The notes under the pieces: model-generated
Database searches by the model: none
Told to the model about the DNA's origin: nothing
What the model saw: the letters and a program-made list of their open reading frames with translations, nothing else
Program-made: the position numbers and the translations under genes
Origin: a virus
Virus record (IMG/VR): IMGVR_UViG_3300045988_166883
Coordinates: 1-35,325 of that record
Length of the DNA: 35,325 nt
Reading direction: 5' to 3' (one strand)
Shown here: in pieces, positions 4,369 through 34,135 of the stretch
How the letters are laid out: each line of letters begins with the position of its first letter
Numbering within the stretch: position 1 is the first letter of the stretch

Positions 4369-4611
4369 CTATTCCCCTTTGATTTCGGCTATGAGCTTCT
4401 CTATCGAAGCTTTCTTGAATCTAGCCTCGATTGCCTTTCTCTTGGATGAAGGGATGCGGTCTTCTCTAAACCAGTTGGTAAGAGTCTGAGGCGTGCAGTC
4501 GAGAACATTGACAGCGTACTGAATCAAGGTCAAATCCTTTTCCTTCATATCATCGGAAATCTTGATAAGCAACTTGTCGGTGATGTTTCTTTTCTTTGCT
4601 TTTCTACCCAT
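4369..4611 (-). CDS. small helix-turn-helix DNA-binding regulator
   Basis: ORF-track 4369..4692 trimmed to internal ATG 4611 (MGRKAKKRN...), which has a perfect SD AGGAGG 8 nt upstream; 80 aa; HTH-like segment LTLIQYAVNVLDCTPQTLTNWF; the promoter lies immediately upstream. Confidence 0.6.
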   Translation of the reverse strand: MGRKAKKRNITDKLLIKISDDMKEKDLTLIQYAVNVLDCTPQTLTNWFREDRIPSSKRKAIEARFKKASIEKLIAEIKGE

Positions 4612-4636
4612 TCTTTTAATCCTCCTAACGCTTGCT

Positions 4637-4664
4637 ATTATAAGCAATTTATAAAATAATGCAA
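4637..4664 (-). promoter_or_regulatory. sigma70-type promoter for the HTH/recombination operon (TTGCAT - 16 - TATAAT)
   Basis: Minus strand: TTGCAT TATTTTATAAATTGCT TATAAT, then AGGAGG and ATG 4611. The spacer carries the ATTTTATAAA motif shared with other promoters in this genome. Confidence 0.5.
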
Positions 4665-4876
4665 TAGTTTTTGATAAAAAATAAAAAAGCACCTACAAGA
4701 TGCTCTTTGTTAAGTCTATTTTTCATCCTGTCCTTTGCATCCATTCCGCATTTTTGGAAGATGATTTCTTCCAACGCCTCTTCGTTGATTTGGTCATTGC
4801 CCATTGGCATCACGACATACCAATCATCGCCAAGAAGAATGTGCCTTGCCCATTCGCAAAACTCCGCATCTGTCAT
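4649..4876 (-). CDS. hypothetical small protein (75 aa)
   Basis: ORF-track 4649..4888 starts with TTG; first ATG at 4876 (MTDAEFCEWARHILLGDDWYVVMPMGND...); weak RBS; 3' end overlaps the downstream promoter. Coding status uncertain. Confidence 0.3.
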   Translation of the reverse strand: MTDAEFCEWARHILLGDDWYVVMPMGNDQINEEALEEIIFQKCGMDAKDRMKNRLNKEHLVGAFLFFIKNYCIIL

Positions 4877-4929
4877 TCCGACTGGCAAGATATTGTCCTT
4901 GTCCTCTCTTTTGGCGTATTTTCTTCATC

Positions 4930-20324: not shown

Positions 20325-20897
20325 CTAGAACCTCCACCAGAAAGAATAGAACCCCATTCCAGAATTGAGACTTCTAGTCCACAGTCCTGCAAGCTCAAGC
20401 TCACGCTGGCACTCTATGCCTATTTCACGCTGTCTTATGTCGTTCTTGCTCAATATCGGGTATCCATCATCGTTCAAGCCCATGCTCTCGGTTATCGCAG
20501 TGTTGCTGAATATGTAGAGTACCTGTTCTATCACAGCAAGCTTGTAGTGGTATCTCTGGTTGTCCGAGGGCTTGGAATAGAACTTCCCTATGTTGCCCGA
20601 GAAATGCGTGTCTATGTAGTTGTTGAGTCTTCTCTGGATACGCTCTATGAACGCCTGTGCTGCTGCGTGAGAGTCTCCATCGACCATATTCCCCTCGACC
20701 AAACGGAACACGAGGTTTATGCCAGTGTACTGCTGAAACTCCTCGGGCGATACGAGAAGTCGGTTCAAGTCCATTCCGTTCGGAGTCCTCACATCGGTCT
20801 TCTTGATAAATGTGGCATCAGCTCCCTTGACTGTATATACTGTCCTGTCATCTATCTCGTTCTCAGCTCCGCCAAATGTCTTTATGTCTTCAACCAT
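20325..20897 (-). CDS. head-tail connector/structural protein (190 aa)
   Basis: ORF-track 20325..21044 is a TTG-initiated extension running through a terminator hairpin; ATG 20897 (MVEDIKTFGG...) has ACGGAGGA upstream. Confidence 0.5.
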   Translation of the reverse strand: MVEDIKTFGGAENEIDDRTVYTVKGADATFIKKTDVRTPNGMDLNRLLVSPEEFQQYTGINLVFRLVEGNMVDGDSHAAAQAFIERIQRRLNNYIDTHFSGNIGKFYSKPSDNQRYHYKLAVIEQVLYIFSNTAITESMGLNDDGYPILSKNDIRQREIGIECQRELELAGLWTRSLNSGMGFYSFWWRF

Positions 20898-20930
20898 CTT
20901 TCTAATCCTCCGTATGTATGAAATTATTAT

Positions 20931-20969
20931 AAAACAAAAAAGCTCCTTATTTCTCGTTATAAGGAGCTT
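20931..20969 (-). terminator. strong intrinsic terminator 43 nt upstream of the 20897 start codon
   Basis: Minus strand: AAGCTCCTTAT aacgagaa ATAAGGAGCTT (11-bp perfect stem) followed by TTTTTTGTTTT. Confidence 0.65.
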
Positions 20970-21151
20970 GACTAAGGATTTTTTACATGCATATGCCACT
21001 CGGAAGAAGACTCTATCGTTTACAAGTGGTGGCATATCACGCAAGAGGTATCAGAAAGGTATCCGAAAGGAGTAATGACTATTCAAGAACTTATCATTCA
21101 TTTTTATGAAAGAAAGGATGATACCTCACTGCTCTATATTACCACTAGCAA

Positions 21152-21218
21152 ATAAAAAAATCCATACTTCTCACCACAAAAAGTATGGACTTGCACATTT
21201 TGAGGTTTTATCCCCACG
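21152..21218 (-). ncRNA. candidate ~65-nt small RNA (promoter to first terminator in the capsid-to-connector leader)
   Basis: Begins just downstream of the TTGACT...TATATT promoter and ends at hairpin TCCATACTT-11 nt-AAGTATGGA plus a U-run (minus strand, 21161-21189 then T-tract); no ORF inside. Confidence 0.35.
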
Positions 21219-21224
21219 CACACT

Positions 21225-21251
21225 AATATACTACTTTTATAAAATTAGTCA
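21225..21251 (-). promoter_or_regulatory. sigma70-type promoter (TTGACT - 15/16 - TATATT)
   Basis: Minus strand: TTGACT AATTTATAAAAGTAG TATATT; ATTTTATAAA-type spacer. Confidence 0.5.
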
Positions 21252-21260
21252 AGTGCTTTT

Positions 21261-21300
21261 TATAAAATAAAAATGCCTTGTGCTTTTTGCACACAAGGCA
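21261..21300 (-). terminator. intrinsic terminator after the major capsid gene
   Basis: Minus strand: GTGCCTTGTGTGC aaaaa GCACAAGGCA followed by TTTTTATTTTAT. Confidence 0.55.
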
Positions 21301-21355
21301 CGAAAATTAGGTAAGTTGGACATTAGGACACTGAATATCCAACGCTCTAATTATA

Positions 21356-22618
21356 CTACTTCTTGTTGACAGCTACTGCACCATCGGTCTTGGCGATAAT
21401 CAATCCGTTGGAATCACATCCGAAGAATCTCAAGTTGCTTCCAGTCGCAGGGATATCATCGCCGATGGGCTTAATCTTGTCGCTAGAAAGTTTGACACCA
21501 TAGTTGTGGTCGACAGTATCGAATCCGATCTTGGTCACAAGCAAGTTTCCAGGCAAAGCCGAGAAGGACTCGACTGCGGTTGTTCCAGCTGCAGAACCAG
21601 CCTTGGTGGCAACGAACAATCTGCCAGCTGAGGATACCTTCAAAGTTTTACCCAATGATACGAAGAGTCCAGGTACTTTGTTGTCGGGTACATAGATTCC
21701 GTGATAGAGATGGTAGTCTACTGCCCATCCATCGAATCCGAGATGTACGCTGTCGGAATCATAGACATGCATTCTGCCCAAGATGTCGAAAATCAATGTG
21801 GTGTCGGCGGATACTATCATATAGTTGATGGACTTTGCTCCATCGGCAGGTGCATATCCGTTGTCGGTAAGTGTAATTTTGTTGAAGAATCTTCTTGCAG
21901 GGACTTTAATCAAAGGTCTTCCAAGGAATGTATCAATCTTGACTTTGAGTCCACCATAGTCGATTTCGGAGACTCCCAAATAACGAGTAATCTTGTTGGA
22001 ATTGACAAGCAAGTTGTGAATCTCGGGATTCACGAAGATGACTTGTTTCTCCTCGGGTACGCCCATATCGAAGAGCTTGGCAAGGGCATTACTGAGCAAT
22101 GTGAAGATGTCTTGGTCTCCACCATCGGCGGTAGGTGTCTCGGTGACCAAGTTTCCATAGGACAAGTTGGCACGGGATGCAAGATATGCGAAACGGAATG
22201 CATCGACCTCGGGTACGACTGATTCACGAGGGAACTGTGATACAACATAGGTCAAAAGCAAATCATCGATTTTCTTTCCTTCTACACGGTCGATTTGGAA
22301 CTCGACACCACGGTTGCATTGAAGATTGAATTCCTCGAACTCAAGCCTGGCATCATTTCTCTTGTATCCATCACCGCCAGTGGTTTGATAATGTACATAG
22401 TCGGCTGCAGGTGTGAATTGATTTACAGCCTTGTAGTTTGCAAGTCCGCCTGAAGAACCCTTAGGCAACTTGATGACTCCTGCTCTGTTGAAATCTGGCT
22501 CAATTGTTGCATATGCTTCAGGTGCATACTCTCTCAAGATATCGGTCTTGGACTCGTGTACGAACACTGTATCCAATGCTTTCTGATATAGCTTGATGGT
22601 CTCATTTGAAATGTTCAT
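21356..22618 (-). CDS. major capsid protein (HK97-fold type, 420 aa)
   Basis: Size, position immediately after the scaffold gene, own terminator; ATG 22618. Confidence 0.7.
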   Translation of the reverse strand: MNISNETIKLYQKALDTVFVHESKTDILREYAPEAYATIEPDFNRAGVIKLPKGSSGGLANYKAVNQFTPAADYVHYQTTGGDGYKRNDARLEFEEFNLQCNRGVEFQIDRVEGKKIDDLLLTYVVSQFPRESVVPEVDAFRFAYLASRANLSYGNLVTETPTADGGDQDIFTLLSNALAKLFDMGVPEEKQVIFVNPEIHNLLVNSNKITRYLGVSEIDYGGLKVKIDTFLGRPLIKVPARRFFNKITLTDNGYAPADGAKSINYMIVSADTTLIFDILGRMHVYDSDSVHLGFDGWAVDYHLYHGIYVPDNKVPGLFVSLGKTLKVSSAGRLFVATKAGSAAGTTAVESFSALPGNLLVTKIGFDTVDHNYGVKLSSDKIKPIGDDIPATGSNLRFFGCDSNGLIIAKTDGAVAVNKK

Positions 22619-23333: not shown

Positions 23334-24207
23334 ATAGGCTATACGAAAGCAAAAGCTTGTCCTTCTCAATCAGTCCTGCAAGCTCAGCACTCGGTCGCAT
23401 CTTGAATGCACGCATATGGAAGTACAGCCTGTTCCTGTATGCCTCCTGCCTTATCTCCTTGGGTGTCCTAGGTGGCAATGTCTGGAACGAGCCTCGCCTT
23501 CCCTCATCGTATCGCATATGAAGCTCGCTCAATGCGGTGTTCGGGTCTGTCTTCATCACATAGTCCATCGGCAACGATGTCATATAGTGTCGGCAGTTCG
23601 GTCTCGTAATCATATACACTGGGCTGTCTATAACCCACTGATAGCTTTTGAGACCTTTGATTCTTGCATACTCGAGTACATCCCTCGGTGCGTTCTCATC
23701 GACATAATACTTTCCTTGGTAGTCCTTGTGTCCTACAGCTGGGTCTCCGTGCGTTGAACACAGCCATATGTATCGGTGGCTGTATCTCGCATCATCCAGC
23801 GTACGCTTCACCGCCTCCTGCCTCTTCTCGCCATCATAGTGCTGTGATGCATCCCACACCATAGCCATTCCGTTCTGATAGCATTCGGTGGCTATCCTAA
23901 GCCTTTCCCTGTCATTCAACGAGCTGAGATTCCTACCGCCTATGATTCTCTCGAAACGATGCGGAAGTGTAGACACGAGCTTAGGGATGAACAAGCCCAT
24001 CCCTATAGCCGAAATCCCAACGAATCCATAGCCCTTACGCTCGAATCCGTAATAGACATTCCTGTCTATCGGCTTGTCATCCACAAGGTCTATCTGCCAA
24101 GGCTCGCCACTGTAGAGTCCTCGGAACGCCTCATAGCGTATCCTCGAAATCAGATCGTCATTGCTTGTCCTTGTGGCGTATGTCATCGCCGACATCTCCG
24201 CCACCAT
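23332..24207 (-). CDS. minor head morphogenesis protein (SPP1 gp7 / Mu F-like), 291 aa
   Basis: ORF-track 23332..24276 trimmed to ATG 24207 (MVAEMSAMTYATR...); follows the portal gene as in SPP1-type head modules. Confidence 0.55.
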   Translation of the reverse strand: MVAEMSAMTYATRTSNDDLISRIRYEAFRGLYSGEPWQIDLVDDKPIDRNVYYGFERKGYGFVGISAIGMGLFIPKLVSTLPHRFERIIGGRNLSSLNDRERLRIATECYQNGMAMVWDASQHYDGEKRQEAVKRTLDDARYSHRYIWLCSTHGDPAVGHKDYQGKYYVDENAPRDVLEYARIKGLKSYQWVIDSPVYMITRPNCRHYMTSLPMDYVMKTDPNTALSELHMRYDEGRRGSFQTLPPRTPKEIRQEAYRNRLYFHMRAFKMRPSAELAGLIEKDKLLLSYSL

Positions 24208-25858
24208 CGTTCTTGCCCTTCTTAGAAACGCCCTCTTGCTTTCCGCTGTCCTTCGCAACGCTGTCGCTAATTCCATTCCTCAAGACCTCTTCTATGTTCT
24301 CGACATTGTTTCCCTCGTACACCGCAGGTGCAAGCAATGCCTCGTGTCTTGCCTGCTCGAGTCTCTCCTTCTCGGCTTGCTTCTCCTCATCGGTCAACCT
24401 GTCACGCCATAGGTTCTCCACATAAAGCTCGGTGGATATCTGACCTGAACTCCAAGCCGAACCAAGCACCTTGAGTTCGGTCTCCAGCGATGGATTTGCG
24501 AACTCTCCGAATCTTACCTCGACTCTTGTCCTGCCCTTCTCGGCTCTTAGGAAGAAATATCCGTTTCGCTTGTAGTCAGCCATATCCATCAAGTCCGTGA
24601 GGACATTCTCGAGTATGGTCTTCTCATTGGCTACTATGATGTTTCTGGTAAGCGTTGTTATCTTCTCACGCTCTCGGTTCTCCAGAGGCTCGTTCATCCC
24701 TGGATTCAATGTCACGCCCAATGTGGCTACCGACATTATGCCATTGAGGATTTCTATGATTGCACGCCTTCTTGTCTTGTCATACTGGTCTACATCCATA
24801 TGAGGCTGGTCTACCATTATCCCACCGCTCTGGAGTCTCCCATCCCCATTGGGAATCACATCATCGTTCGTGACAACGAAATCCCTGTCGAACTCATCAG
24901 GCTCTACACGCTCGATTTTTGTCTCGTGATTCCCGTATCCATCGGTCACTGGGACTTCGGTGGTTCTTAGCAAGCTCTCGGGTATGTATGTCTGAGGTGT
25001 CGACAATCTTACCGCACGCCCCTCTATGCTCCAAGCCTCATCCACCATATCGAGCAAGTCAAGCTTGCCTTCGCCGATGGAGCGACCATAGAGACCGCCT
25101 CGCTTGTCCATAAGTATCGTTGTGGGAACAGCGAACAGCTTGCCCAACCCCTTGGTCACAGTTGTGGGCTTCAAGCCCTTTGTCTCATCGAGAGTGTCCA
25201 AGCCGACCTCTGTATTTCCACTGTCCTGCCAGTTCACCCAACGATAGAGATGGAAGTCTATATGCAGGTCTCCGCCTCCGTTCTCTCCGCTCCTCGTGAG
25301 ATATCGTTTCTCCACAAGCATATACTTCAAGCCCTTGTCATCCTTGAGATAGTCGATGAAATCAATGCCAGTGATATGCTCGCCCCTTGCATGATATCGA
25401 ACCCTGTCAGCTGTGTAGTAGTCAAGGCTTGGAGTACTCTCGTATGGGCTGGATGAAATCTTGAAACAGCCTGTTCCCTGTGCGAGAGTCAAGGGTATCT
25501 GCTTCTGATTCACGATATGGAAAAGCCCTGTAGATTCCTCCAATTCCTCGGCAAGCTCCTTCTCCTTGCCAACAATGATGGGAGTGCCGACAACATTGGT
25601 AAGCACATCTATGATGTCAGCAAATAGATTGTCGTGCGTTCTTCTGAATGCCTTCTTGGCATTCACAGACCTTGCCCAGAAATACTGCATCCTGTTTCTG
25701 AGATATATCGGATTGCTTGGAAAATATGTATTCATTGACTCGGTGTAGAACTCGAGAAGCTCGCTCGAGTTCCCGTTGTACCAAGTGGTATATTCCATTA
25801 TCTCTCCAAGTCTGAGCATTTCCTCATTGCTCACATACATCCTGTTGTTAGGGTTCAT
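24158..25858 (-). CDS. portal protein (SPP1 gp6-like), ~566 aa
   Basis: ORF-track start 25867 is TTG; ATG 25858 (MNPNNRMYVSNEEM...) has GGAGG 10 nt upstream; size and acidic C-terminal region typical of portals; adjacent to the head module. Confidence 0.7.
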   Translation of the reverse strand: MNPNNRMYVSNEEMLRLGEIMEYTTWYNGNSSELLEFYTESMNTYFPSNPIYLRNRMQYFWARSVNAKKAFRRTHDNLFADIIDVLTNVVGTPIIVGKEKELAEELEESTGLFHIVNQKQIPLTLAQGTGCFKISSSPYESTPSLDYYTADRVRYHARGEHITGIDFIDYLKDDKGLKYMLVEKRYLTRSGENGGGDLHIDFHLYRWVNWQDSGNTEVGLDTLDETKGLKPTTVTKGLGKLFAVPTTILMDKRGGLYGRSIGEGKLDLLDMVDEAWSIEGRAVRLSTPQTYIPESLLRTTEVPVTDGYGNHETKIERVEPDEFDRDFVVTNDDVIPNGDGRLQSGGIMVDQPHMDVDQYDKTRRRAIIEILNGIMSVATLGVTLNPGMNEPLENREREKITTLTRNIIVANEKTILENVLTDLMDMADYKRNGYFFLRAEKGRTRVEVRFGEFANPSLETELKVLGSAWSSGQISTELYVENLWRDRLTDEEKQAEKERLEQARHEALLAPAVYEGNNVENIEEVLRNGISDSVAKDSGKQEGVSKKGKNDGGGDVGDDIRHKDKQ

Positions 25859-26026
25859 TTGTGTCAAACCTCCATATACAAAATATTATAAGGCAAATAA
25901 AAAGAGTTTGGATAAAAATCCAAACTCTAGAACAGCTTGACCTGCACATAATCCACCAGATCGCAATCCTGCTCCTTAGGCACATACAAGCCCTCTATCT
26001 TGTCATCGTAATGATTCGCACCCCTG

Positions 26027-27689: not shown

Positions 27690-29192
27690 CTATCTCTGCT
27701 TGAACTGACCCCAAGCCATAAGATACGCCTTAAGCGGTGCCCACGCATATTCCCAGGCATTCAGTGCGTGGTCGTTCAGGTTCTCCCTTGTCTCGCCCTT
27801 GTCGCCTCTTCGGCTCTCGTCCATCTCTCTTATGAGGTTCTGGCACTTTCCGCATATCTGGCATTCCCCGTATCCGAGAAGCCATCTTATGAAATCCACT
27901 CGGGTCTGTATCCCCATCTTCGTGCTTCCAGTCGCCTGAGCCCTGTACAAAAGCTGTCTTCCGCATTCCTTTATGAACGCATCACGGAATCCGATATCCG
28001 CACAGTCGATGTACACGGGTATCATCCTTCCGTTGAACAAATCGGGATGTCCTTTCCACACCACATCCTGCCAGTGCTTTATAACATTAACGCACGCACG
28101 AACCTCCTCATCCTGAGTCATCGGCTTCAGCTCCCCATCGTTGCTGTGAAACCACTCGTCTATCGCAACTATCTTCTGGCAGTCCGAGGTCAAGCCCACC
28201 AACTGCACTGTCGTGGCACTCTTCACTCGACCATCCTTTCTTATATGCCCTTCCCCGTTGCTCAATCCCGTATCTATCCCGATCGAGAACGCCCTGAAAC
28301 GCATCCTCATGACATCCTCCACGCCTATTATGTTCCTGCTATGCACGAACTCGGGATACACACGCTCCGTGCTGTTTCCCCACATCCCGAGACCTTCGAC
28401 CTTGTATATCTCGAGCGCATGGTCTCGCATATACTCCATGCTCGCATCGTACTCGGGTGTCCTGAACTCGTTCACCCTGTATGTGCTTTGGTGCAGATAC
28501 AAGCCTCTTCCGAATCCAAGCTGGAAATCCCTGTCGTAGCAGTCCAGATACGCATTCTTCTCCAACTGCTCGAAACTAGGGTCTAGCCTGCCAGCGAACA
28601 TCTTCTCGTACACCCAGTGCTTCCTGCTCCAAGGGTTCATAGCCATCGTTATCTGGATCTGCACGCCTGGTGGCAATTCGCCACGCAACGAACCATCGAG
28701 CTTTCTGAACGCATCGTAGTCGCTCATCTCGTACATCTCCTCCATATACGCATCGCTCAACACCCCGTGCTCCACAGCCACCGAGGTTATGCCAGTCGGG
28801 TTGTTGAACCCCTTGAACATTATCTTCTGTCCTGTCTCCCTGTACACTATCTGCCTCGGATTTACCATCACCTTGAACAAGTCGCCTATCGCCAGCTCCT
28901 CGATTATGCCCTTCAGTCTCGCATATGTGCTTGTGAGGTTGTCGCTGTCGTTCTGTCTTATCATCACGATGTTCCTGAACTCGTTCGACATTATCTTGAA
29001 CAGCGGCTCGAGTCCGAGCATATCCGTGGACTTCTTCGTGTTTCTTCCGCCCACATTCGCCCTGTACCTGCACGGGTTGTGCAACCAGTATGCGTTCGTG
29101 AACAGCTCCGTGTCGTATCCGTATCCGCACAGCTGGGAGAGGTTCAGTATCCTCTCCTGCCCCTTCCTCGGCTTATCGTATCTCAATCCCAT
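27690..29192 (-). CDS. terL: terminase large subunit (500 aa)
   Basis: Size; position directly downstream of (and translationally coupled to) the terS-like gene and upstream of the head module; N-terminal P-loop-like NVGGRNTKKST. Family assignment (PBSX/Terminase_3-like) is a guess. Confidence 0.7.
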   Translation of the reverse strand: MGLRYDKPRKGQERILNLSQLCGYGYDTELFTNAYWLHNPCRYRANVGGRNTKKSTDMLGLEPLFKIMSNEFRNIVMIRQNDSDNLTSTYARLKGIIEELAIGDLFKVMVNPRQIVYRETGQKIMFKGFNNPTGITSVAVEHGVLSDAYMEEMYEMSDYDAFRKLDGSLRGELPPGVQIQITMAMNPWSRKHWVYEKMFAGRLDPSFEQLEKNAYLDCYDRDFQLGFGRGLYLHQSTYRVNEFRTPEYDASMEYMRDHALEIYKVEGLGMWGNSTERVYPEFVHSRNIIGVEDVMRMRFRAFSIGIDTGLSNGEGHIRKDGRVKSATTVQLVGLTSDCQKIVAIDEWFHSNDGELKPMTQDEEVRACVNVIKHWQDVVWKGHPDLFNGRMIPVYIDCADIGFRDAFIKECGRQLLYRAQATGSTKMGIQTRVDFIRWLLGYGECQICGKCQNLIREMDESRRGDKGETRENLNDHALNAWEYAWAPLKAYLMAWGQFKQR

Positions 29193-31217: not shown

Positions 31218-31244
31218 AGTTTTCCTCCAACTGTCCGATTTGGA

Positions 31245-31301
31245 TAGTTAGTTAGTTCTTCTAACTAAGTAATATTATACTATTATTTTACAAATAATCA
31301 A
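31245..31301 (-). promoter_or_regulatory. promoter (TTGATT - 16 - TATAAT) with palindrome TTAGTTAG-ttctt-CTAACTAA at +1..+25; copy 1 of a duplicated ~85-bp cassette
   Basis: -35 31296-31301, -10 31274-31279, inverted repeat 31248-31268; about 88% identical to 31828-31903. Confidence 0.55.
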
Positions 31302-31441
31302 GCATTATTTATAAAATATTTTATGTTTCATATATTGCATTTTGTAGAATATGTAAGATTTTACAGATCGCCAAAAAGTCCCTATCGGATTTTAAAAAAC
31401 CTAATTTTAATGATATTTCAGTCTTGAAAACTGCGATTGAT

Positions 31442-31776: not shown

Positions 31777-31827
31777 TTTGTGCCTTTCACGGAGGTTATT
31801 TTCCTCCAGATCTCTTTAATTCCGAGA

Positions 31828-31883
31828 CCTAGTTAGTTCTTTCTAACTAAGTATTATTATACTACTATTTATAAAATAGTCAA
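31828..31883 (-). promoter_or_regulatory. promoter (TTGACT - 17 - TATAAT) with palindrome TAGTTAG-ttcttt-CTAACTA; copy 2 of the duplicated cassette
   Basis: -35 31878-31883, -10 31855-31860, inverted repeat 31829-31848; similarity to copy 1 ends exactly at the helicase stop codon (31903). Confidence 0.55.
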
Positions 31884-31902
31884 GCATTATTTATAAAATA
31901 TT

Positions 31903-33276
31903 TTATGTTTGTTTTCGACTTTTTAAAACATAATAAGCCCACTGTGAGGGATGCTTGTAGCCTCTTTCCTCACCTAGTTTTTTCAGCTGTTGGAAAGTTC
32001 GACAGCGCCCACGCTGGCGCCGATTTTCGATTAGTTGATTCTTTCTAATTAAAGCTAGTTCTTTCTTGTTTTGTATCTGGATTTCTCGGACATTCAAAGG
32101 CACGGGGGTATTACAAAAAGGGCATAACCTACCCGTTAGCATCTGGGATGGCATGAACGAGCGGAGGCATTGGGGGCAAGTTTTTATAATTAGCGAATCA
32201 TGCGCGGTCTCGTGCTTATGCGTGTTTTTTAGCACGCTGGAGAGGCTCCACGACCTCGGGGCATCTGGAAAGCCGAAGCGGTAAATATTCCCCACAAAAT
32301 CGAAAATAGAGGCTCTTTTGTTTGGGTTTTGGGGGTCGCTTCTCAGGGCTCTTCCTGCCTGCTGGATGTATAAAGTTAATGATTGGGTCGCGCGGAGAAG
32401 GAATACACAGTCACAGCTTGGAACATTAAATCCTTCTCCGATTAAGTCGACATTGATTAATATTTTTATGCGGTTGTTTTTAAAATCATCTATTATTTTA
32501 TCCCTTTCGAGTTGGGGAGTCGTGCCATTGATTTCGGCAGATATTCTGGCGTTGAAATGCTCGTTAATTTGTGATTCTAGCTTTTTAGAATAATCGACAG
32601 TAGGAGAGTAAATAATCGTTTTTTTGCCAAGGTCGATATATTTCAATATGTCTCCATAGATTGCTTTTTTGTCCAGATGGTAGGCGTTGTCTGTGGTGTC
32701 GAAATCACCGCTTTTTAGCTTCCATTGTGAAAAATTGAAATTGAGGTCGGGGGAGAAATAATCATAATCAACTAAGTAGTTATTTTGGATTAGATAAGCA
32801 TAATCAACGCCGACAATTAATCGGTCGAAAATCTCACCTAGGGGTTTTCCATCCAGGCGGGCGGGGGTGGCTGTGAAACCAATAAGGGCAGTTTTAGAAT
32901 AAGCGGATAAGACCGTTTTAAAGCTGTTAGAGATTGCGTGATGGCATTCATCGATAATTATAAGAGAATAAGGTTTTATGCCCGTTTTAAGCGTTTTTTT
33001 AAAACTTTGAATCATCGCTATATTAATATGATCTGTGTTTATTTGGAAAGTCTGGAAAGCATCTATAGTTTGTTTTAAAAGCTCTTTGCGATGTAATAAA
33101 ATAAGTGCTCTATTATCTGGCTTTTTGATTGTGTTCAAATAGGCTAGATAGCAAAAAATAGCGGTCTTGCCTGCTCCACAAGGGAGTACGCAACAGAGTT
33201 TTTTATATCCGTTTTTAAAAGCATCTCGGCAATTATTAACTATAGTTTGTTGGTAGTTTCTTAATGTCAATTTCAT
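31903..33276 (-). CDS. SF2 helicase, DEAH/ResIII-type (type III restriction res-subunit-like) with C-terminal zinc ribbon, 457 aa
   Basis: Q motif RNYQ; motif I PCGAGKT; motif II IIIDECHH; motif III FTATP; motif VI QQAGRALR; C-terminal CPQC...CPFC; about 33% GC, AAA/TTT-rich codon use unlike the structural genes. Confidence 0.7.
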   Translation of the reverse strand: MKLTLRNYQQTIVNNCRDAFKNGYKKLCCVLPCGAGKTAIFCYLAYLNTIKKPDNRALILLHRKELLKQTIDAFQTFQINTDHINIAMIQSFKKTLKTGIKPYSLIIIDECHHAISNSFKTVLSAYSKTALIGFTATPARLDGKPLGEIFDRLIVGVDYAYLIQNNYLVDYDYFSPDLNFNFSQWKLKSGDFDTTDNAYHLDKKAIYGDILKYIDLGKKTIIYSPTVDYSKKLESQINEHFNARISAEINGTTPQLERDKIIDDFKNNRIKILINVDLIGEGFNVPSCDCVFLLRATQSLTLYIQQAGRALRSDPQNPNKRASIFDFVGNIYRFGFPDAPRSWSLSSVLKNTHKHETAHDSLIIKTCPQCLRSFMPSQMLTGRLCPFCNTPVPLNVREIQIQNKKELALIRKNQLIENRRQRGRCRTFQQLKKLGEERGYKHPSQWAYYVLKSRKQT

Positions 33277-33290
33277 ATTTTAGCCCCCTA

Positions 33291-33333
33291 TTTTTTTAAA
33301 AAAGCCGTGAAATATCACGGCTTAATTTTTTTT
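33291..33333. terminator. bidirectional hairpin terminator only ~15 nt upstream of the helicase start codon
   Basis: TTTTTTTAAAAAAGCCGTGaaatatCACGGCTTAATTTTTTTT: 8-bp stem with T/A runs on both sides; overlaps the stop of the 64-aa ORF. Confidence 0.5.
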
Positions 33334-33526
33334 ATAATATTTTAAACTCTATTTCATCCCCAGTTTTGCGGTTAAGCATCAGAAGCGTATCGGTCTCGGA
33401 CTGCCACAAATAACAATAATCGTTTTTTATTAAATTAACTATCATATCCTCATAATAGTTGGAATACATTCCCATTTTAGAAGTGATGCCATTCTTAGTA
33501 ATACTGATTATAAGTTCTTTGTTCAT
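33332..33526 (-). CDS. hypothetical island protein A (64 aa)
   Basis: ATG 33526; preceded by a 19-aa micro-ORF (MEKTTLKKIIGAVRELEIR) with AAAGAGG RBS. Confidence 0.4.
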   Translation of the reverse strand: MNKELIISITKNGITSKMGMYSNYYEDMIVNLIKNDYCYLWQSETDTLLMLNRKTGDEIEFKIL

Positions 33527-33658
33527 TGCGTTAATTCCTATCTAATTTCCAACTCTCTAACTGCTCCAATAATCTTTTTTAATGTGGTTTTTTCCATAAA
33601 TGTGCCTCTTTCTTTTCTGGGATGTGTTCCCTTTGTGCTTGTCTTTTCAAGCGTCCTT

Positions 33659-33687
33659 ATTCTCTCACTTTTTGTAAAATAAATCAA
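33659..33687 (-). promoter_or_regulatory. putative island promoter (TTGATT - 16/17 - GAGAAT, weak -10)
   Basis: Minus strand: TTGATT TATTTTACAAAAAGTG AGAGAAT; same spacer motif as the 27.58-kb promoter. Confidence 0.35.
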
Positions 33688-33968
33688 GCGTTTTTTACAA
33701 AATTATTTTATTTTTCATATATCCGATGAAGACAGTACATTGCAACAATAAAACAGCCATGTTTGGCGGTTGTTGACATCTGGGGGGTATGAAAAAGTGG
33801 GGTGCGGATTTTGGAATACCTGAAATTGTTGTCCGTGATTATCCTAAACAGCCCACAATCGTTGATTTTTGCCTTGTTTTAGCCACGAGATTAATCAAGA
33901 GGTATAAATATATGCCTAAATGGAATCATGTGCCTAGAATCGCTTGTTTTGAGGGGGGGGATATGTCG

Positions 33969-34016
33969 AAAACGAAAAACGGAGTTCCGTGGAAGGAACT
34001 CCGCCGAAAGGAGTTC
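33969..34016 (-). terminator. terminator with three-arm alternative pairing (GGAGTTCC / GGAACTCC / GGAGTTC) after the 267-aa gene
   Basis: Minus strand: GGAGTTCC ttccac GGAACTCC followed by GTTTTTCGTTTTCG. A third arm upstream of the hairpin on the minus strand allows a mutually exclusive hairpin. A G8 tract (33953-33960) lies just 3' of the terminator and a G7 tract (34123-34129) between the stop codon and the terminator. Confidence 0.5.
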
Positions 34017-34135
34017 ATCTAGGAATCTAGAAAATCCTGGATAGCTTTTTCAATGAAAAATCGTAATGACAGATGCCTGAAAGCATCATATGTATTTTAT
34101 AGAAACATCGTGCGGAAAGCAAGGGGGGGATTTTG

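Follow-up and report, generated by a model that had tools for sequence, protein, structure and literature searches.

The 458-nt intergenic gap that follows the major capsid protein gene in the phage sequence IMGVR_UViG_3300045988_166883 (positions 1-35,325, the whole stretch of DNA analysed and called the window below) contains a short unit that runs from promoter to terminator without an open reading frame (ORF). Its anatomy and conservation point to an autonomous, moron-like small-RNA gene, with a product of ~64-69 nt that would itself be the selected entity and probably acts in trans; we put the probability of this reading at about 0.5. Almost all genes of the window lie on the minus strand, as does this unit, and features are read on that strand unless stated otherwise. 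In this direction the gap consists of a small hairpin (21343-21315), a terminator (T1), the promoter, a 69-nt block ending in a second terminator (T2), a 180-nt spacer, a third terminator (T3), TATAAT, GGAGG and the ATG of the next gene. The parts of the unit are:

21225-21267, minus strand: promoter module, with TTTTATAAAA at 21267-21258, the -35 box TTGACT at 21252-21247, a copy of TTTTATAAAA in the spacer at 21244-21235, and the -10 box TATATT at 21230-21225
21151-21219, minus strand: conserved RNA body, predicted transcript of ~64-69 nt, recognised by conservation and fold
21201-21216, minus strand: hp1, a 5-bp hairpin (UGGGG/CCUCA) with the A-rich loop AUAAAA, found in both the minimum free energy (MFE) and the centroid structure
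21150-21192, minus strand: T2, an intrinsic terminator with a U7-A-U3 tract, core stem 21189-21161, extended 21192-21158

Host RNA polymerase would start at ~21219-21217 from the promoter at 21252-21225 (P21252), one of seven standard sigma-A-type promoters of the phage, and would transcribe first the 5-bp hairpin with its A-rich loop and then the A/U-rich linker CAAAAUGUGCAAG. T2, acting as a constitutive intrinsic terminator, would halt the polymerase and release an RNA of ~64-69 nt with a U tail, any read-through being caught by T3. The RNA would then be the product itself, its primary sequence under strong purifying selection in a prevalent human-gut clade, and would most likely act in trans, through base-pairing or binding, with a host mRNA or host factor as its partner. 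Promoter activity, efficient termination at T2 and action in trans are inferred here. A more specific version, which we advance only tentatively, is that the RNA represents an undescribed, sequence-constrained trans-acting small RNA (sRNA), an ORF-less ‘RNA moron’ within the structural module of a prevalent, uncultured human-gut phage clade (probably with a Bacillota host), made from standard promoters and reprogramming host mRNA or protein during infection.

A preliminary description of the region had proposed a 9-bp-stem hairpin with a U-tract at 21161-21189 behind the promoter, and this is where T2 lies, on the minus strand. Its core is a perfect 9-bp stem (UCCAUACUU/AAGUAUGGA, 21189-21161), which grows to 15 pairs at 21192-21158 if G-U pairs are allowed, with a predicted energy of -12.7 kcal/mol for the core and -15.6 for the extended form, and it is followed by the tail UUUUUUUAUUU at 21160-21150. 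The strength of T2 is on a par with that of the ten other terminators of the phage, and its U run is the longest of all. Between hp1 and T2 there are 8-10 nt of A/U-rich linker (CAAAAUGUGCAAG), predicted to be single-stranded, and an RNA with the predicted start at 21219-21217 would reach the U-tract after 64-69 nt. The 69-nt sequence folds with an MFE of -22 kcal/mol (z=-4.66). No fold competes with T2: the best T2-free structure reaches only -9.2 vs -22.4 kcal/mol, and the upstream part folds independently. Riboswitch-like switching at T2 was rejected on this ground, together with the lack of an Rfam match. The absence of an ORF between promoter and hairpin, also claimed in the preliminary description, holds for all minus-strand ORFs of at least 30 aa inside 21151-21219, and no conserved ORF is found on either strand of the unit. 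The block contains only minus-strand frames of 16 to 17 codons, none with a usable Shine-Dalgarno sequence.

The boundaries of the unit are drawn sharply by an alignment of 12 independent contigs that share 91-97% capsid identity and the same arrangement. Invariance starts at GCGUGGGG, 6 nt past the -10 box, where the start site is expected, and stops with the U-tract. The 5 nt ahead of the block are hypervariable (AGTGT, AATAG or AATAA), as are the 7 nt past it (five haplotypes). Within the block only 3 of 70 alignment columns vary (4%): an additional A in the hp1 loop, which is the sole indel (L022, L034, L035), a U-to-C change in the loop or inner stem of T2, and a C-to-A change in the T2 stem. 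There are four sequence variants in total. The diversity (pi) of the neighbouring segments is considerably higher:

RNA block, 21219-21151: 0.013
promoter: 0.051
T3 plus ribosome-binding site (RBS): 0.061
capsid gene: 0.065
T1: 0.086
two boundary stretches either side of the block: 0.18-0.19
spacer: 0.20

The block shares top rank as the most conserved 70-nt segment in 2.7 kb. Neighbouring four-fold sites are variable at 31-39% (Fisher p=2e-7 against the 4% of the block), and the other non-coding flanks at 25% (p=5e-5). The block evolves 5- to 15-fold more slowly than flanks and synonymous sites. T1 and T3 keep their structure while their sequences drift and their loops are free to vary, whereas the sequence of the block is fixed even in loop and linker, which is more than a terminator alone would require. 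The pattern agrees with selection acting on a discrete transcript at the sequence level, and poorly with drift or with recombination homogenisation having such sharp edges.

Could the selected product be a peptide? The 17-codon frame beginning at AUG 21198 (MCKSILFVVRSMDFFIC) might be translated, yielding a tiny hydrophobic peptide or, since the frame runs through T2, serving in translation-coupled attenuation of the pyrBI type. The frame is open (17-19 codons) in all 12 contigs, the sole indel of the block lies upstream of its AUG, one of the two substitutions within it is synonymous, and a stop codon occurs just beyond the U-tract. We consider this very unlikely, however, as there is no proper Shine-Dalgarno sequence (a GGGG 12 nt upstream is sequestered in hp1, whereas the genes of this phage use GGAGG), termination at T2 would leave the RNA without a stop codon, and the C-terminus varies between contigs. 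Two substitutions also carry no statistical power. Tight coupling of transcription and translation is moreover not expected in Bacillota.

The promoter (TTGACT-N16-TATATT) matches the consensus at 10 of 12 positions and has a 16-nt spacer; its activity is predicted from sequence. The near-consensus boxes named in the preliminary description are indeed present on the minus strand, but the range given for them (21225-21251) was one base short, the correct one being 21252-21225. Generic sigma-70 matches occur in the region at chance rate (6 found vs 6.1 expected). P21252 is nevertheless more than a chance match, because it is one of seven near-identical minus-strand modules that share an enriched motif:

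-35 boxes starting at ~33687, 31883, 31301, 27590, 21252, 9524 and 4650, minus strand: promoter family with a shared architecture

This architecture consists of TTTTATAAA(A), ~5-7 nt, TTGAyT or TTGCAT, a conserved 16-nt spacer (wATTTTAyAAAA...) and TATAAT. The TTTTATAAA motif occurs 15 times where 0.43 occurrences are expected, nearly always within the promoter modules. The module at 21252 is intact in 11 of the 12 related contigs. Six of the seven modules are located 25-95 nt upstream of ORFs with Shine-Dalgarno sequences, and only the one at 21252 runs into a terminator. Because several of them come straight after a terminator, the genome appears to be punctuated into transcription units. 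Palindromes of 10 bp (TTTTATAAAA or close variants) are found upstream of the -35 box and inside the conserved 16-nt spacer of each family module; the copies at the 21252 module are 23 bp apart, and two copies are present at the 9524 module as well. They resemble UP elements, or else operators bound by a single regulator; the HTH_17 protein whose gene (4369-4692) comes directly after the 4650 module is a candidate for this role. The predicted transcripts of the 31883 and 31301 promoters share a near-identical 5' hairpin (CUUAGUUAG-AAAGAA-CUAACUAgG; window 31790-31855 and 31230-31273, minus strand), which could be an mRNA-stabilising or regulatory stem-loop.

The intact unit is confined to the clade with at least 91% capsid identity, and is replaced by other sequence at the same locus in relatives with 72% capsid identity or less. 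Those with 64-72% identity (L011-L019) display T1, a promoter, an ORF-less leader of 150-230 nt, T3 and an RBS, the leader being unrelated in sequence to that of the window. At 64% capsid identity, three contigs from sister clades have an ORF-less promoter-to-terminator RNA of another kind at this locus (L014 6345-6490, L015 5226-5371, L017 6342-6505). It forms a ~90-nt long hairpin followed by a terminator, with five pairs changed on both sides among the three sequences, and has no match in Rfam. The relatives with 54-57% capsid identity have just one terminator, TATAAT and an RBS in an 85-nt gap, which indicates that T3 with its TATAAT is ancestral and that everything upstream is a clade-specific insertion. 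The preliminary description had proposed covariance searches against Rfam and related phages. The unit matches no Rfam family; among the related phages the best that its covariance model finds is a weak hit (25 bits, E ~0.002) in the L014/L015 leader, whose final 62 nt consist of the hairpin UGUGG-AGACGA-CCGCA, GUGCAAG and a terminator. This hit is suggestive of homology but does not prove it.

One lineage has been rearranged at this locus. In L003 and L020, which represent assemblies from two independent datasets, the sequence diverges immediately after GTAGTATA, within the -10 box, and homology returns at ~21143. The intervening 2.1 kb (L003 5392-7512) is an inverted copy of window segments 31898-33430 (the ResIII/helicase gene), 31292-31418 and 33721-34036. 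The spacer, T3 and structural genes are intact, and no forward sigma-70-like promoter is present ahead of the structural operon. A whole contig of this lineage (L039, IMGVR_UViG_3300045988_173184) shows that the RNA body with T2 has been retained, ~10 kb away in inverted orientation (4849-4917, 85 bits), where it immediately follows the gene homologous to window gene 35005-34136. The relocated body has no family promoter, a G-run in place of its 5' GCGUG, and three substitutions. Judging from this genome structure, the intact promoter-RNA unit is accessory and dispensable, and the downstream operon does not require it in cis. Between them, the helicase cassette (window 31898-34036) and the RNA body swapped places, both becoming inverted. 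Both junctions of the swap are runs of 7-9 G, matching C-runs of the window at ~34120-34130 and 33953-33962, and ~30 nt of the spacer start are duplicated in the rearranged lineage (L003 5392-7512, L039 4819-4925; also L020). Two of the substitutions in the relocated L039 hairpin add T's on the other strand, and this hairpin may now terminate the neighbouring gene.

Such rearrangements bring up the possibility that the unit is recombination debris: a promoter module and a portable hairpin-terminator module joined at a hot spot, for example after loss of a moron gene, leaving a functionless RNA and a T2 that merely insulates the downstream genes. The locus is a hot spot, with its indel-rich spacer, the helicase cassette swapped in, and junctions at promoter modules and G-runs. 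The order of small hairpin, linker and terminator recurs at T1, and at T1 and T3 of relatives, and the relocated L039 hairpin, which stands right after the stop codon of another gene and has gained T's on its other strand, can serve as a generic terminator. On the other hand, neither debris nor a pure insulator would be expected to be fixed in the sequence of loop, linker and 5' hairpin, or to fall 5- to 15-fold below the diversity of adjacent non-coding DNA and of synonymous sites, with sharp edges at start site and U-tract, when genuine terminators such as T1 and T3 drift freely. The selection signal therefore disfavours this explanation, and we regard it as unlikely.

The unit is flanked on both sides by further terminators:

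21262-21301, minus strand: T1, intrinsic terminator of the capsid transcript, hairpin 21301-21273 followed by a U-tract
20970-21149, minus strand: variable spacer with the hairpin P2 and large indels
20895-20969, minus strand: T3 and start of the next gene, with T3 at 20969-20940, a U-tract, TATAAT at 20931-20926, GGAGG at 20911-20907 and ATG at 20897

T1 has an 11-bp stem (-16.5 kcal/mol) and the tail UUUUAUUUUA, and differs among relatives by compensatory changes in stem and loop. A small extra hairpin and short linker are often found ahead of terminators in this phage group (‘double-hairpin’ 3' modules, as at 21315-21343 on the minus strand and at T1 of L011 and L014), and the covariance model of the small RNA weakly matches these modules (15-18 bits). 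The spacer contains P2, a 15-bp hairpin (UUGCGUGAUAUGCCA ... UGGCAUAUGCAUGUAA) with arms at 21044-21030 and 20998-20983 and a hypervariable loop of 28-40 nt. Its stem is retained among relatives via four one-sided changes (GC/GU, UA/UG), and the G-U pairs are possible on the minus strand only. P2 is possibly another structured RNA element, situated between T2 and T3. An indel-rich stretch of the spacer is flanked by an inverted repeat of 9 bp (GAGGTATCA at 21127-21119, TGATACCTC at 21053-21045).

The same G-U pairs bear on the idea that the plus strand encodes a small protein or gives rise to an antisense transcript, for which ORF 21106-21270 (54 aa) and the 40-aa and 26-aa ORFs in 20987-21186 are the candidates. 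These ORFs exist and SD-like AAAGGAG motifs are present. Their frames, however, are broken or different in most relatives (the window and L006 alone have the 54-aa ORF, which a stop cuts short in L023), no plus-strand promoter was found, and the G-U pairs of the conserved hairpins suit the minus strand alone, making this highly improbable. A small reverse-strand gene in the spacer was likewise rejected, as the reverse-strand frames there are not conserved among relatives; these frames also show no similarity to the 289-aa protein.

T3 agrees with the preliminary description, in which the downstream gene was separated from the hairpin by a further ~250 nt and a second terminator. Its stem displays compensatory changes among relatives, while the 38 nt from the T3 U-tract to the RBS (20940-20903) are invariant in the 12 contigs. 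An orthologous set of terminator, TATAAT and RBS is found in all relatives down to 54% capsid identity, with the U-tract and GTTnTATAAT kept. The portal gene is preceded by the same order of elements (25868-25902, minus strand), i.e. terminator hairpin, U-tract, TATAAT, ~15 nt, GGAGG and ATG, as at 20898-20940. This arrangement before the post-capsid and portal genes could be an unconventional promoter overlapping a terminator.

The organization of these elements also allows a different interpretation, the main rival, possible but in our view doubtful, in which the 68-nt RNA is the prematurely terminated leader of the downstream structural (connector/tail) operon. T2 and then T3 would stop most transcripts from P21252, and read-through would set the amount or timing of downstream expression, either passively or via a phage antiterminator (in the style of lambda Q/PR'-tR', or of N/nut with hp1 resembling boxB). 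The RNA would be a by-product, possibly moonlighting like StxS. Several of the observations that favour this interpretation also weigh against an autonomous small-RNA gene. The genome is split by terminator-plus-promoter modules and every other family promoter drives an mRNA, opening an operon; no other sigma-70-like promoter is seen between T2 and ATG 20897, so that P21252 may be the promoter of the downstream structural operon; and the sense-strand hairpin P2 is conserved beyond T2, which suggests that this region is transcribed too. The leader interpretation gains further from the relatives with 64-72% capsid identity, which have T1, a promoter, a 150-230-nt leader and T3 before the same gene, from the structured L014/L015/L017 leader with its compensatory pairs, from the weak covariance match of the unit to the hairpin-GUGCAAG-terminator end of the L014/L015 leader, and from the form of hp1, which with its 5-bp stem and A-rich loop is boxB-like. 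There is also a precedent, PR' being always active yet terminated just downstream (PMC7547250). Evidence on the other side is provided by L003/L020, where the -10 box is destroyed and followed by 2.1 kb of inverted DNA, with no forward promoter, and the operon downstream is intact; P21252 is thus apparently not required in cis. Furthermore, an antiterminator fold is absent, no Q-, N- or LicT-like protein was recognised (though most ORFs are unannotated), and few transcripts would be expected to pass passively through two or three strong terminators in a row.

Other points count against the small-RNA gene in particular. The C-to-A change in the T2 stem of L023 is uncompensated, and with only four variants in existence the block shows no covariation. 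Given the narrow distribution, its low diversity could partly reflect recent shared ancestry of the segment. The L003/L020 lineage appears to tolerate loss of the intact unit, so any function is presumably dispensable. Finally, base-pairing targets, the prediction of which had been suggested in the preliminary description, did not rise above chance within the phage: in a phage-wide duplex scan the best value was -25.4 kcal/mol, whereas shuffled sequences averaged -26.0 (p=0.6). A complementary stretch of 11 nt at 5714-5702 was discarded, as it lies within the C-terminal part of a coding region, is not conserved in L045 and is absent from other relatives. A relay of RNA pairings (sRNA 5' end, spacer box, anti-RBS and RBS) was also discarded, its duplex energies being like those of shuffles (p=0.08, 0.38 and 0.41). 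Overall, the candidate sRNA gene described previously is backed by its promoter, terminator and lack of ORF, by the family membership of the promoter, by conservation from start to U-tract, slow evolution and the lack of a competing fold. The term ‘stand-alone’ is less secure, with family promoters that drive operons, no other promoter for the downstream operon, and P2 past T2.

Searches for known relatives of the unit gave little. Rfam 15 contains no family that matches the window or nine related loci at gathering score, and an E-value scan of the region returned only noise (mir-1 E=0.27, PyrR E=4.8). With the families represented there (sRNAs, leaders, riboswitches, CRISPR repeats, ToxI), the unit has nothing in common. 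No tRNA or tmRNA was found. Megablast and blastn against the INPHARED phages detected no homolog, a 20-mer is absent from 185k species genomes, and the capsid protein was not found in the genome-contig collection. A metagenome scan retrieved close relatives only.

The phage itself is not closely related to any of 50,697 deposited phages. The similarity of its capsid and terminase to Bacillota phages is only distant (22-28% identity), and the host is probably a member of the Bacillota, i.e. Gram-positive. One related contig comes from a human-gut metagenome, and the clade is common, as the capsid cluster at 90% identity has 342 member sequences. The genes relevant here are:

21356-22618, minus strand: major capsid protein (phrog_422 major head protein, E=2.8e-40; homologs with 54-100% identity)
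24158-25867, minus strand: portal protein
27690-29192: large terminase
20325-20897, minus strand: first gene of the downstream structural operon (190 aa), ATG 20897 behind GGAGG, ‘connector’ by position only

The capsid protein has 420 aa, of which the PHROG major-head profile spans residues 8-324 only; the C-terminal ~100 aa are an unassigned extension that is also outside distant tblastn matches (query residues ~6-336). The ORF at 20325..21044 is the upstream-open frame of the next gene, the real start of which is ATG 20897. This 190-aa post-capsid gene is syntenic in all relatives. The proteins of the downstream operon gave nothing significant against PHROG, Pfam and PDB (top match XkdH, E=0.55), and the label ‘connector’ is a positional guess. 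No antiterminator, integrase or repressor was recognised with Pfam and PHROG among the ~40 ORFs scanned; most ORFs are unannotated, and a novel antitermination factor may be among them. The G+C content swings from 0.29-0.35 at 30-32 kb to 0.52-0.54 at 28-30 kb (terminase genes), and GC skew is very negative at 26-30 kb, which fits a mosaic origin of modules.

Among characterized phage RNAs, lambda OOP is similar to the unit in size, dedicated promoter, terminator and lack of an ORF. OOP has 77 nt, its own promoter and a Rho-independent terminator, and is a cis-antisense RNA overlapping cII; in contrast, nothing is encoded opposite the unit of the window. The lambda nut site (boxA/boxB), which works with N, and the put sites of HK022 are promoter-proximal small hairpins with a purine- or A-rich loop upstream of terminators. 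The window hp1 is boxB-like in shape and is likewise promoter-proximal and upstream of terminators, but neither a boxA nor an arginine-rich N-like protein was recognised in this phage. The put sites consist of two stem-loops without a U-tract, whereas the second hairpin here is itself the terminator. With lambda 6S and StxS the unit shares a standard-type promoter, an intrinsic terminator within ~70-200 nt, a position inside or ahead of late genes, and a short ORF-less RNA, and StxS (74 nt) is a functional trans-acting sRNA (PMC7547250; bioRxiv 10.1101/2024.10.31.621285). The 6S/StxS units, however, head the whole late operon and need Q antitermination, and the downstream genes need their promoter, while the window unit is located amid structural genes of a phage with no recognised Q homolog. 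The requirement for the promoter that defines PR'-tR' does not apply here as far as genome structure tells, since L003/L020 keeps its operon and does without an intact unit. There is no sequence or Rfam similarity to 6S or StxS either, and the host is probably Gram-positive rather than E. coli. Morons (PMC3594210) resemble the unit in having their own promoter and terminator, in being situated between conserved structural genes, and in their presence/absence and replacement polymorphism among close relatives. They carry a protein-coding gene, however, which the window cassette does not, and are defined largely by expression from prophages, whereas neither integrase nor repressor was found in this phage.

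As a kind, then, the small RNA belongs with what is known, both phage sRNAs and morons as independent units (PMC3594210), and stand-alone and terminator-derived phage sRNAs have precedent (bioRxiv 10.1101/2024.10.31.621285; PMC7547250). As a family it is new and narrowly distributed. Nearly all phage sRNAs known come from E. coli, Vibrio and other model systems, and virtually none have been described for the abundant uncultured phages of the human gut. As an example the unit would be compact and open to testing: its promoter and 68-nt body are defined, and four variants of it occur in nature. Two natural controls come with it, namely the lineage that has promoter and body at separate sites, and the sister clades that carry other RNAs at this locus. 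Should the RNA turn out to be a leader, it would suggest that these phages use terminators to control the dosage of their tail genes. Conservation that extends from the predicted start to the U-tract, set against hypervariable flanks, provides a reusable criterion by which phage sRNA genes may be flagged in metagenomes from DNA alone.

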